Assembly (NCBI GenBank): GCA_038225185.1
Contig: JBBRFA010000004.1
Span: forward strand, 1 to 59,407
Length of the DNA: 59,407 nt
DNA from: Chthoniobacterales bacterium
GTDB lineage: Bacteria > Verrucomicrobiota > Verrucomicrobiia > Chthoniobacterales > DASVRZ01
Direction: 5' to 3'
The notes under the pieces are model-generated. The model was not told where the DNA came from. It was given only the letters and a program-made list of their open reading frames with translations, and searched no databases. The position numbers and the translations under genes are program-made. Below, one piece after another: positions 45,056-48,000 of this stretch. The first letter of the stretch is position 1; each line of letters starts with the position of its first letter.

Positions 45056-48000
45056 ATATGCGCCCCCTTCGCCTCTCCGGCATTGATGCCCTAACCATCG
45101 ACGGCTCGACCCGTTTTGTAAACATTGGCGAACGCACCAACGTCACCGGCTCCCCGAAATTTGCCCGGCTCATTCTCGAAGGGAAATACGAGGACGCCGT
45201 GGCCATTGCCCGTCATCAAGTCGAAAACGGCGCCCAGATCATCGATGTGAACATGGACGAAGGCATGCTCGACGGATCAGCCGCGATGACGAAGTTTCTC
45301 AATTACATCATGACCGAACCGGAGATCGCCCGGGTGCCAGTGATGGTCGATTCGTCAAAATGGAGTGTCATCGAAGCTGGTCTTAAATGCATCCAGGGCA
45401 AGGGAATCGTCAATTCGATCTCGCTGAAAGAAGGCGAGGAAAAATTCCTCTTTTACGCCCGGCTCATCAAACGTTACGGAGCGGCCACGGTCGTGATGGC
45501 TTTCGACGAAAAAGGCCAGGCCGATTCCTTCCAAAGAAAGATCGCAATCTGCGAACGCAGCTATCGTTTGCTAGTGGATGTCGTCGATTTCCCGCCGGAG
45601 GACATTATTTTCGATCCTAACATCCTCACAGTTGCGACCGGCCTCGATGAGCATAACAATTACGCCGTCGATTTCCTCGACACCTGCCGCTGGATCAAGG
45701 CCAACCTGCCGCACGCCAGAATCAGCGGCGGCATTTCCAACATCTCGTTTAGCTTTCGCGGCAACAACCCCGTCCGCGAGGCGATGCACTCGGCTTTTCT
45801 TTATCATGCGATTCGTGCCGGACTCGACATGGGGATCGTGAATGCCGGCATGTTGGAAGTGTATAGCGAAATCGCGCCCGATTTGTTGGAACTCGTGGAG
45901 GATGTGATCCTGAACCGTCGATCCGACGCCACGGAACGACTCGTCAATTTCGCGGAAACCGTCAAGAAAAAAGACAAAACCGAGGTCGTCGCCGACGCCT
46001 GGCGCAGCGGCACGGTCGAGGAACGTCTCAGCCACGCACTCGTGAAGGGCATCGTGGAATTCATCGACGCCGACGTGGAGGAGGCGCGGCTCAGATACGA
46101 GCGTCCGCTCCACATTATCGAGGGACCGCTAATGGATGGCATGAGCACGGTCGGCGACCTTTTTGGAGCCGGACAAATGTTTCTCCCGCAGGTGGTAAAA
46201 TCGGCTCGCGTGATGAAAAAAGCCGTCGCCTGGTTGCTGCCTTACATGGAGGAAGAAAAATTGCGCAACCAACGCGCCCGCGAACTCGCCCTCCTCGCCG
46301 CCGGGCAGGAGGGGCCGATCATTCGCCTAACGAACGATTTTTGTTACCTGCAATATCCCGATCTCGACGATGAGGAACGCGCCATGGAACACCGATTTGC
46401 CGGTCAGCTCGCCGCTGATCTTGATAAAGCCGCCCGCGATTACGAGAAACTTTTTCGCAACGTCCTCGACCGCAACAGCGTGCAGGAACTCAGCCCCGAC
46501 TACGCAGCCGACCAGGCGAGTCGTCAACGCTGGAGCGTAGCCACCCTCGGGCCCTCCGGCGGTTTTATCGACTGGTTTTTCCAGAAAAAAATCAGCGAAC
46601 TCCCGCCCGACAGCCTCATCGCCTTCAACGCCGGCGGCCAGGGCAGCGGCAAAACCACCGCCACCCGCGAAGCCGAAGTCGAACGGCAGGCTGATCTCCT
46701 GATGGACGGCACCCTTCAGGATGAAACCCGCAGCACTCAACAAATCCGGGCGGCCCTGAAACGCGGACACTTCGTGCAGATTCGCTTCGTTTTTTGTCCT
46801 TGGGAAAAAGCCGTTGTTAACATTCTCAATCGAGCTTCCAAAGAAACAGGGCGCATCGTCCCACTCCGACGCGCCGCCGGAGGACATTTTCAAGCCGCCA
46901 GAAGCGTTCTGCGAATGAACCAGGAGCTCATCATTACTGCCAAAGACATCTGGGTGATCGACAATACAGATTTCAAAAAACCTGTCCGACGCGACTTGGA
47001 TTGGCTCACTTCGCAAGTTCACGATTCGCGGGAAAAACTGGTTGAAACTGGACACGAAATAGCCGATAGCTATTTTCATGAGCACAGCAACACTTCCTTA
47101 TCCGTTGAATCTGTCCGCCGAGGATTTCTTGAAGAGAGAAGAACGCAAAAGACAACGCTTCGAGGCACTGGGCGAAGCCACGCTGAACGCCCTGCGCAAA
47201 GCGGGCGAAGCGAGAGCGAAGAAGGACGCGGAGGAAGCCGCGGCGAAAACCGGTCTGGCGACTCAGACCCCGATTTCGCAGTAAATAGCGAAACTGCCAG
47301 GGATCGCGGCAGTTCACCGGGCCGCATCTTGATGGCCACGGTCAAAGGCGATGTTCACGACATCGGCAAAAACATCGTCGGCGTCGTGCTCGCGTGTAAC
47401 AATTTCGAAGTCATCGACATGGGCGTCATGATTCCCTGCGACCAGATTTTGGCCAAAGCCAAGGAAGTCGGTGCCGACGTGATCGGTTTGAGCGGACTCA
47501 TCACGCCATCGCTCGACGAAATGATCCACGTCGCGCAGGAAATGCAGCGACAAGGTTTCACGCAGCCGCTTCTCATTGGCGGCGCGACCACCAGCAAGGC
47601 GCACACCGCTGTAAAAATCGCCGCCAGCTACCCCGGTAAAGTCATTCACGTGCTCGATGCGTCGCGCGCCGTCGGCGTCGTCAACAGCCTGCTCGGCGAT
47701 AAATCCGAGACCTACAAACAAGGCATCCTGGACGAATACGAAAAGCTTCGCAACGACCACGCCAGCAAAAGTAAAGATCGCAAATCGCTCCCGTTCGCCG
47801 CTGCTGTTGCCAACCGCACGCCCATCGACTGGAGCGATTACACACCACCGAAACCCGCCTTTCTCGGCGTCCACGCCCTTAGCTCCGACGCGCAATTAAT
47901 CCCTGCCGGAGTAAAATGCGATTGCGGCGTCCCGCATCCTCAGGCTGGCCTTATTTCTCTCGAAGACATCGTTCCCTACATCGACTGGTCGCCTTTTTTC

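Follow-up and report, generated by a model that had tools for sequence, protein, structure and literature searches.

The 59,407-nucleotide stretch analysed here (the window; contig JBBRFA010000004.1 of assembly GCA_038225185.1, from a Chthoniobacterales bacterium) encodes a cobalamin-dependent methionine synthase (MS), MetH, in which a domain of the Zeta_toxin family is embedded in frame between the cap and the B12-binding (Cob) domain. MetH is a textbook multi-domain enzyme whose catalysis relies on large movements around short linkers. The gene consists of two overlapping open reading frames (ORFs) on the + strand, 43976..45055 and 45052..48891, and all five MetH modules with their signature motifs are present across both. 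The layout is listed below, with residues after the first line numbered in the main ORF.

43976..45055, + strand: homocysteine-binding (Hcy; S-methyltransferase) domain ORF, 359 amino acids (aa); Pfam S-methyl_trans PF02574, 298 bits.
45052..48891, + strand: main MetH ORF, 1279 aa without a stop, comprising the folate, cap, inserted, B12-binding and activation domains.
45127..45843, + strand: Pterin_bind (methyltetrahydrofolate) domain, residues 26-264; Pfam PF00809, 203.8 bits.
46015..46260, + strand: cap, a four-helix bundle, residues 322-403; B12-binding_2 PF02607 at 322-395, 84.6 bits; helices in the AlphaFold2 (AF2) model.
46261..46317, + strand: N-terminal connector of the insert, residues 404-422; a predicted extension of the last cap helix, poorly conserved.
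46318..47166, + strand: zeta-toxin-fold domain of the ng_zeta1 type, residues ~423-705; compact, ~280 residues.
47167..47319, + strand: predicted disordered tether rich in R, G, S and E, residues ~706-756 (~50 residues); predicted local distance difference test (pLDDT) score of ~30 in AF2 over ORF 707-753.
47320..47601, + strand: B12-binding (Cob, Rossmann) domain; Pfam PF02310 at residues 757-850, 66.7 bits.
47959..48834, + strand: Met_synt_B12, the AdoMet-binding reactivation domain, residues 970-1261; Pfam PF02965, 381.9 bits.

The main ORF passes the NCBI metH equivalog TIGR02082 (1152.7 bits, cut-off 1010.85) and falls just under NF007024 (1442 against a cut-off of 1497), its Hcy part sitting in the other ORF. 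The B12 motif GDVHDIGKN occupies residues 766-774 and the RPAPGYP motif of the reactivation domain residues 1187-1193. The Hcy ORF aligns to positions 2-321 of the metH model and carries the zinc motif GGCCG at its residue 329, so that in the window the Hcy/zinc domain lies on a separate polypeptide. The stop of the Hcy ORF and the start of the main ORF overlap as ATGA at 45052-45055, and with the Hcy domain placed upstream in this way MetH would here be made from two translationally coupled genes. The same split is found at loci L021, L031, L039 and L026, with spacing that differs between the metagenome-assembled genomes (MAGs), while most carriers have one fused ORF of ~1600 aa. As several related MAGs are split likewise with different spacing, the arrangement looks natural to a subclade, rather than a frameshift. 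The intact motifs and the ratios of non-synonymous to synonymous substitution (dN/dS) of 0.16-0.33 in all MetH domains suggest that the enzyme is an active methionine synthase. No riboswitch was found by Rfam upstream of metH in the window.

The inserted segment, 46261-47325, had been described in an earlier note on this DNA as about 355 extra codons within an open frame of 1279 codons, and it corresponds exactly to residues 404-758, 355 codons, of the main ORF. The excess of linker over canonical MetH that was claimed there is equally clear, since the span from the cap motif to DVHDIGK is 395 aa in the window ORF and 367-466 aa in 71 insert-bearing relatives, compared with 48-61 aa (median 49) in 116 insert-less relatives. 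Cap and B12 domain are thus separated by about 350 extra residues, in a linker that has ~10 residues in insert-less relatives and 7 in Thermus MS (Linker III, Cap:Cob; PMC10567725). The extra residues divide into a helical stretch that prolongs the cap, a compact domain and a disordered tether. In an AF2 model of ORF 310-900 (pLDDT 85.8) the last cap helix runs on to ~418 (the connector helix is residues 69-109 of the model, ORF 378-418) and is followed by a small hairpin, an alpha/beta domain up to ~705, a disordered stretch at 707-753 and the first Rossmann strand. The insert is therefore predicted as a discrete compact domain on the hinge, which was one of the checks proposed at the outset.

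The Zeta_toxin model PF06414 matches the excised insert with 46.2 bits (E 4.6e-12) and the whole ORF with 41.9 bits, above a cut-off of 22.3, although only profile positions 92-189 of 199 are covered. AF2 modelling of the insert core from an eight-sequence alignment gave a pLDDT of 84.6 and a predicted template modelling score (pTM) of 0.79. With this model, Foldseek against the PDB placed Neisseria gonorrhoeae ng_zeta1 (6EPG/6EPH) closest, at E 6e-9 and TMq 0.73, followed by PezT, zeta and AvrRxo1 (2P5T, 3Q8X, 1GVN, 4Z8Q), so that the predicted fold is that of zeta/PezT kinases. The proposal of a zeta/PezT-type P-loop domain seated in the cap-to-Rossmann linker of an otherwise intact MetH holds. 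In sequence searches, phmmer with the insert as a single sequence found no match among PDB sequences; ng_zeta1 was reached only with the eight-sequence profile. No NCBIfam model matches the insert, nor do any of the G-protein models of Pfam and NCBIfam, and the fold matches belong to the nucleotide-kinase class. The GC content of the insert resembles that of its flanks and is continuous over both junctions. An intein or other self-splicing insert was considered and rejected, as Pfam shows only Zeta_toxin, with no splicing or endonuclease domain; the N-terminal junction reads ...MEEEK/LRNQ.... An antisense ORF of 252 aa (46327-47085, - strand) lies wholly within the insert and was likewise rejected as a gene, since it merely shadows the conserved sense frame, the coding DNA here being GC-rich.

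The functional residues were mapped by aligning the ng_zeta1 sequence, taken from a gonococcal plasmid, with 143 family domains using hmmalign; the profile of these 143 domains aligns ng_zeta1 residues 21-254 with 104 bits. The ng_zeta1 subclass has two sequence blocks swapped, which places the catalytic Asp56 ~60 residues ahead of the P-loop Lys115 (PMC5923241). This block swap accounts for the partial nature of the Pfam match. The insert has the same order of blocks, since its Asp/substrate block is N-terminal to the P-loop, with VLDRN..QEL lying 59 residues before K534 just as D56 precedes K115. The mapped elements are as follows.

46462..46491, + strand: acceptor-site block, residues 471-480, with N475 at the position of ng_zeta1 D56 and Q478 at that of K59.
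46633..46659, + strand: Walker A P-loop GGQGSGKTT, residues 528-536, with K534; aligns with GIPGSGKTS and K115 of ng_zeta1.
46696..46719, + strand: strand LLMDGTLQ, with D552 as a Walker-B-like acidic residue; equivalent to the Glu of LLFEGQL in ng_zeta1.
46828..46863, + strand: arginine-pair block, with R594 and R601 equivalent to the phosphate-binding pair R175 and R181 of ng_zeta1.

The roles of D56, K59, R175 and R181 in ng_zeta1 have been described, and the general-base Asp (D56 in ng_zeta1, D67 in zeta) is called catalytically important in both proteins (PMC5923241). The Walker A lysine and the phosphate-binding arginine pair of the family are present and conserved in the insert. The P-loop is intact in 75/75 loci, and among 71 embedded copies 13 consecutive P-loop residues are each at least 97% conserved per column, as are MDGT, DRN and QELS, and the G, R, V, R, G and H of the GRxVP..R..GH block. 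The catalytic Asp is replaced: N475, which occupies its position, is itself at least 97% conserved in these copies, and an invariant Asp, D473, lies two residues upstream. Among the 143 family representatives the Asp56 position holds Asp in 137 and Asn in six, namely four MetH-embedded domains, the stand-alone protein P0013 and P0052, whose P-loop is degenerate. The Lys59 position holds Arg or Lys in 131/143, and Gln in the same six that carry Asn. Since both the general base and the substrate-contacting Lys/Arg are replaced, toxic activity directed at UDP-sugars has presumably been lost. The mapping offered in the earlier note survives in part: its Walker A stands, while ADLLMDGT, which it took for the catalytic-Asp strand of PezT, is the equivalent of the FEGQ/IEGT strand, and the position of the catalytic Asp is in fact found before the P-loop, where the insert has Asn. 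Two tryptophans, W494 (46531-46533) and W508 (46573-46575), are conserved in at least 90% of 44 aligned MetH-embedded copies (as RWS and DW). They are missing from the stand-alone sisters described below (RLS/ELS, no DW) and from ng_zeta1, and their place corresponds to the helix region with which ng_zeta1 binds its sugar substrate (PMC5923241).

The architecture is widespread. A word-index search with the insert returned seven metagenomic proteins, six of which have a cap, a B12-binding or a pterin-binding domain beside it. P0005, the remaining one, is annotated as Zeta_toxin only, yet it starts with the C-terminus of a cap and ends with the B12 motif; one database fragment had been automatically named 'zeta toxin family protein'. 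Among the genomes of GTDB r232, scanned with one for each species, 75 loci carry the insert in metH. The flanking cap and B12 motifs can both be read in 71 of these loci, and there the Walker motif falls between them in the same frame; among the 75 loci it was never found outside metH. All 75 carriers are apparently Verrucomicrobiota, a few MAG titles being plainly mislabelled, and they include the cultured Haloferula sargassicola NBRC 104335 (Verrucomicrobiaceae). Contigs L005, L016, L018, L037 and L052 are titled Klebsiella sp., Spirochaetaceae, Enterobacteriaceae or Akkermansia muciniphila and encode MetH of the Verrucomicrobiota type; their titles are probably taxonomic mislabels or binning errors. 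No description of a MetH with a zeta-type insert was found in the searched literature, in keeping with the impression that the architecture had not been described. The alignment of orthologues shows an insertion shared by 75 species-representative genomes and missing in close insert-less relatives.

Selection on the parts of MetH was compared by the Nei-Gojobori method in 430 pairs; because dS is near saturation, only the ranking of the dN/dS values is reliable. The connector block tested was ORF 404-429 and the tether block ORF 681-755. The values are listed from N- to C-terminus.

Pterin region: identity to the window 0.74, dN/dS 0.16.
Cap region: identity to the window 0.73, dN/dS 0.18.
Connector block: identity to the window 0.28, dN/dS ~0.65.
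Zeta core: identity to the window 0.53, dN/dS 0.30.
Tether block: identity to the window 0.17, dN/dS ~1.0.
Cob region: identity to the window 0.77, dN/dS 0.18.
Activation region: identity to the window 0.57, dN/dS 0.33.

By this ranking the zeta domain is under purifying selection and the tether is not. The 71 embedded domains are monophyletic in a neighbour-joining tree (90/100 bootstraps), and pairs with more similar inserts also tend to have more similar MetH backbones (Spearman 0.61 between the pairwise identities). Together, the monophyly and the correlation fit a single capture with mostly vertical inheritance thereafter. The suggestion of a tolerated lineage-specific insertion is accordingly supported and extended, to 75 species, a single clade of domains and purifying selection on them.

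Inserts of other kinds occur in Linker IV (Cob:Act). At two loci (L014:7486-8571 and L003:7495-8580) the insert-bearing MetH has a second in-frame insert of ~320 aa there, which matches Pfam Pribosyltran with 35.2 and 31.5 bits and carries the motif VILVDDILASGETL. At L038:4726-5583 an IS200-like Y1 transposase domain (PF01797, 25.2 bits) lies in frame in the same linker, flanked by a direct repeat of ~25 aa (GGGILPPSPDT...GGQNAPATV); it looks like a recent mobile-element insertion that has kept the frame open. Linker IV is also long in L070 and L032.

Outside MetH, an exhaustive HMMER search returned 2086 representative proteins at E values up to 1e-3. These relatives fall into two groups, stand-alone proteins of ~270-330 aa and domains within proteins of 1000-3900 aa. 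Scanning of the giant proteins gave LPD22 above its cut-off in one, and LPD3 and Kinase-PolyVal only below theirs; nothing on polyvalent proteins with a zeta toxin was found in the searched literature. In viruses, the zeta regions of Caudovirales proteins of 766-1114 aa match the fold best, at 18-28% identity. One stand-alone sister group (P0013 and P0277-P0290, ~272-292 aa) shares the DRN..QEL variant and has an intact P-loop; four of its loci are L078:157-1011, L079:8001-8861, L080:8001-8879 and L082:8001-8615. Their contexts vary, some adjoining TrbI/HTH_17 genes, some near a type VI secretion system cluster and some amid glycoside hydrolases. None of the stand-alone sisters adjoins metH or B12 genes, and they have no common neighbour, their upstream neighbours being mutually non-homologous. 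The idea of a captured toxin gene can be kept with regard to origin only, the relatives being stand-alone and polyvalent-protein zeta domains. A simple pseudo-kinase interpretation had to be softened, because the Asn/Gln variant is fixed in the stand-alone sisters too and cannot be a simple inactivation after capture.

Around metH itself no gene family is common to more than 9/76 loci, which indicates that neither an antitoxin nor a dedicated partner gene accompanies the insert. An adjacent cognate antitoxin of the epsilon or PezA kind is likewise missing. The neighbours of metH in the window are a glycosyltransferase-like ORF and a lipocalin-like ORF, and PADLOC and PHROGs gave no match. The sole Rfam/ARAGORN match in the 59-kb window is a tRNA-Thr (CGT) at 20850-20924.

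Our preferred reading, to which we assign a probability of about 0.45, is that the insert is a domesticated, nucleotide-binding, zeta-derived accessory module that acts in cis at the Cap:Cob hinge of MetH, the mechanism being inferred. At Linker III, the 7-10-residue hinge between Cap and Cob, an ancestral Verrucomicrobiota metH would have taken up in frame a P-loop gene of zeta-toxin type that stood alone and belonged to the permuted ng_zeta1 subclass. The result would be one polypeptide running from the cap helix through the connector, the zeta-fold domain and the disordered tether into the first strand of the B12 domain. As the tether is disordered where it rejoins that strand, Cap and Cob would still be able to open and close. 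The module would no longer be a UDP-sugar-killing toxin and may have been retained for ATP binding and perhaps hydrolysis, most likely as a dispensable accessory switch working in cis on the hinge that uncovers cobalamin. Retention for nucleotide binding is suggested because a mere passenger would not be expected to preserve the surface residues of the P-loop and the arginines. The Cap and the linkers have known roles in the conformational cycling of MS, and the hinge must open ~25 Å to expose cobalamin (PMC10567725). The seat of the module on this hinge makes modulation in cis of cap opening, cofactor loading or reactivation the most plausible function, and the nucleotide state might be coupled to cap opening, to loading or exchange of the cofactor, or to reactivation, much as in the concept of the MeaB part of IcmF but with an unrelated P-loop class. 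The regulatory or cofactor-handling NTPase listed among the options of the earlier note is thus a possible role. In its most specific form, the insert as an ATP-dependent gate that uncaps cobalamin for loading, exchange or repair of the oxidised enzyme, the proposal is unlikely.

Several observations weigh against domestication. ATP binding by the insert is predicted from its motifs only, and any contact between the insert and the MetH domains is hypothetical. The insert-bearing MetH backbones are not monophyletic, carriers and non-carriers being unseparated (0/30 bootstraps), and insert-less MetH can be 88-94% identical to carriers in the cap/Cob region. The latter include two fragments that are 90-94% identical to carriers in the cap (P0237 against L008:3607-8457 and P0273 against L014:3520-9411); an artificial cap+Cob query, which is biased to insert-less fragments, served only as a source of such comparators. 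A clean insert-less junction follows ...YLMPYMEAEK with 9 residues, AGKILLATVKGD, where the carrier has 340 residues. In the sequences compared, close relatives differ in whether they have the zeta insert. The mixed backbone tree and the near-identical insert-less relatives imply that the insert has been lost or exchanged repeatedly and is dispensable for MetH, and for the same two reasons a single host clade without losses was rejected. The occurrence of the Asn/Gln variant in stand-alone sisters means that it is not an adaptation to MetH, and the domain may still be active. Finally, the foreign in-frame inserts in Linker IV of related genomes, the phosphoribosyltransferase (PRTase) of L003 and L014 and the IS200-like transposase of L038, show the linkers to be permissive. 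This last point favours the view that the gene of a mobile or conflict element simply sits in a permissive MetH linker, has no role in MetH and persists because only a precise deletion would spare the enzyme. That view gains further from the dispensability shown by insert-less close relatives, from the lack of a conserved partner gene and from the nearest relatives, which are stand-alone in variable or mobile contexts or are domains of giant polyvalent or phage proteins. Such a passenger, however, should decay like the tether (dN/dS ~1.0), whereas the domain stands at 0.30, close to the activation domain at 0.33. Its P-loop 13-mer, MDGT, both arginines and DRN..QELS are invariant at ~45-70% overall identity in 71-75 species, and selection against misfolding alone would not keep a nucleotide-binding site. 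We regard inert persistence as doubtful.

The same conserved site, with its complete Walker A, acidic strand residue and arginine pair, could also belong to an active small-molecule phosphotransferase with an acceptor other than a UDP-sugar, fused to MetH only for co-expression or co-localisation (a Rosetta-stone fusion). The acceptor may then be an already anionic compound, a nucleotide or a corrinoid-related compound. The Asn/Gln stand-alone sisters, conserved as ~280-aa proteins, suggest a working enzyme, and the MetH-clade residues W494 and W508 fall in the sugar-substrate region of ng_zeta1 (PMC5923241). An independent enzyme is nevertheless improbable, as the general-base Asp (present in 137/143 of the family) is replaced along with the substrate-contacting Lys/Arg, a position in the hinge has no obvious advantage over a terminus, and no conserved pathway genes lie nearby. 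More improbable still is a latent toxin or guard, inactive within MetH and freed, for instance by proteolysis of the tether, upon phage attack or metabolic stress to cause abortive infection. Zeta-family ancestry, a tether predicted to be disordered and thus accessible to proteases, and the second conflict-type domain (PRTase) of some relatives would suit this role. The replaced catalytic Asp, the lack of PADLOC or PHROG matches and the lack of a defence-island context speak against it, and the tether, being unconserved, offers no conserved cleavage motif. A chimeric assembly, a metH that is open by chance or a separate gene starting at ATG 46384 has a negligible probability. The start MEHRFAG at 46384, with GAGGAA 6 nt upstream, and the other peptides quoted in the earlier note are indeed present, and this GAGGAA is what could favour independent translation; the internal Met, however, is L, I or V in aligned orthologues, so that this part of the note's proposals falls. 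The same in-frame arrangement in 75 independent assemblies excludes both a chimeric assembly and a frame left open by chance. The strong scores and purifying selection of all MetH domains, which are intact and constrained, disagree with a disrupted metH, and the continuous GC content at the junctions and the nature of the 46327-47085 antisense ORF as a shadow ORF point the same way.

A domesticated accessory module at this hinge would raise the question of nucleotide control over the conformational cycle of MetH or over B12 loading and repair, and that of how a toxin fold becomes disarmed and domesticated inside an essential enzyme. A real gate would give the methyltransferase class of B12 enzymes its first built-in chaperone function driven by nucleotide, and would be a case of a toxin kinase fold turned into a conformational switch. 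Natural controls are at hand in the close relatives without the insert and in the sporadic inserts of Linker IV, and MetH linkers appear as hotspots for in-frame domain capture. The architecture would surprise specialists in B12 enzymes, and it may prove accessory or near-neutral; even an inert module would be a clean case of a mobile-element domain persisting over the long term in an essential gene.

Among known systems, canonical MetH from E. coli and Thermus has a Linker III of 7-10 residues and a fused Hcy domain (PMC10567725), in contrast to ~350 residues and a separate, translationally overlapping Hcy ORF in the window. A P-loop NTPase beside a B12-binding domain has a precedent of another kind. 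In IcmF, isobutyryl-CoA mutase is fused with a MeaB-type G-protein chaperone that serves cofactor loading and repair; MeaB is a SIMIBI GTPase with an NKxD motif, and IcmF performs AdoCbl radical chemistry where MetH performs methyl transfer. The insert is not a SIMIBI GTPase and has no NKxD motif, so the likeness is a functional analogy only, with P-loop class, position and chemistry all different.

The closest sequence relatives outside MetH are the zeta domains of polyvalent proteins of phages and conjugative elements, together with the ~280-aa stand-alone sisters. These occur either as genes of their own or as parts of giant proteins, in contexts that are variable or mobile; none lies within a metabolic enzyme and, unlike the insert, most retain the catalytic Asp. 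The UDP-GlcNAc 3'-kinases zeta and PezT (1GVN, 3Q8X, 2P5T) and AvrRxo1 belong to the same Pfam family and have the same fold at lower similarity; compared with classical zeta/PezT, the insert has its catalytic blocks in another order, has not kept the catalytic Asp and is without an antitoxin. The best structural match is ng_zeta1, the toxin of the gonococcal epsilon1/zeta1 system (6EPG/6EPH/6EPI; PMC5923241), which shares the Asp block, the P-loop ~60 residues further on, the FEGQ/MDGT strand and the arginine pair, in this order. It can be aligned throughout with the family profile, and its sequence identity to the insert is only ~15-18%. It differs in having Asp56 and Lys59 where the insert has Asn and Gln, and in being free-standing with an epsilon antitoxin gene, where the insert is embedded in MetH without one. 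It also has a C-terminal OB domain, in place of which the AF2 model of the insert has a helix and then disorder; this OB domain is limited to the gonococcal toxins and one Eikenella homologue (PMC5923241). By score and fold the insert is a member of Pfam Zeta_toxin, and by the order of its blocks it belongs to the permuted ng_zeta1 subclass. Because it departs from zeta toxins in two features, the catalytic Asp and the adjacent antitoxin, it is better named zeta-derived than zeta toxin.

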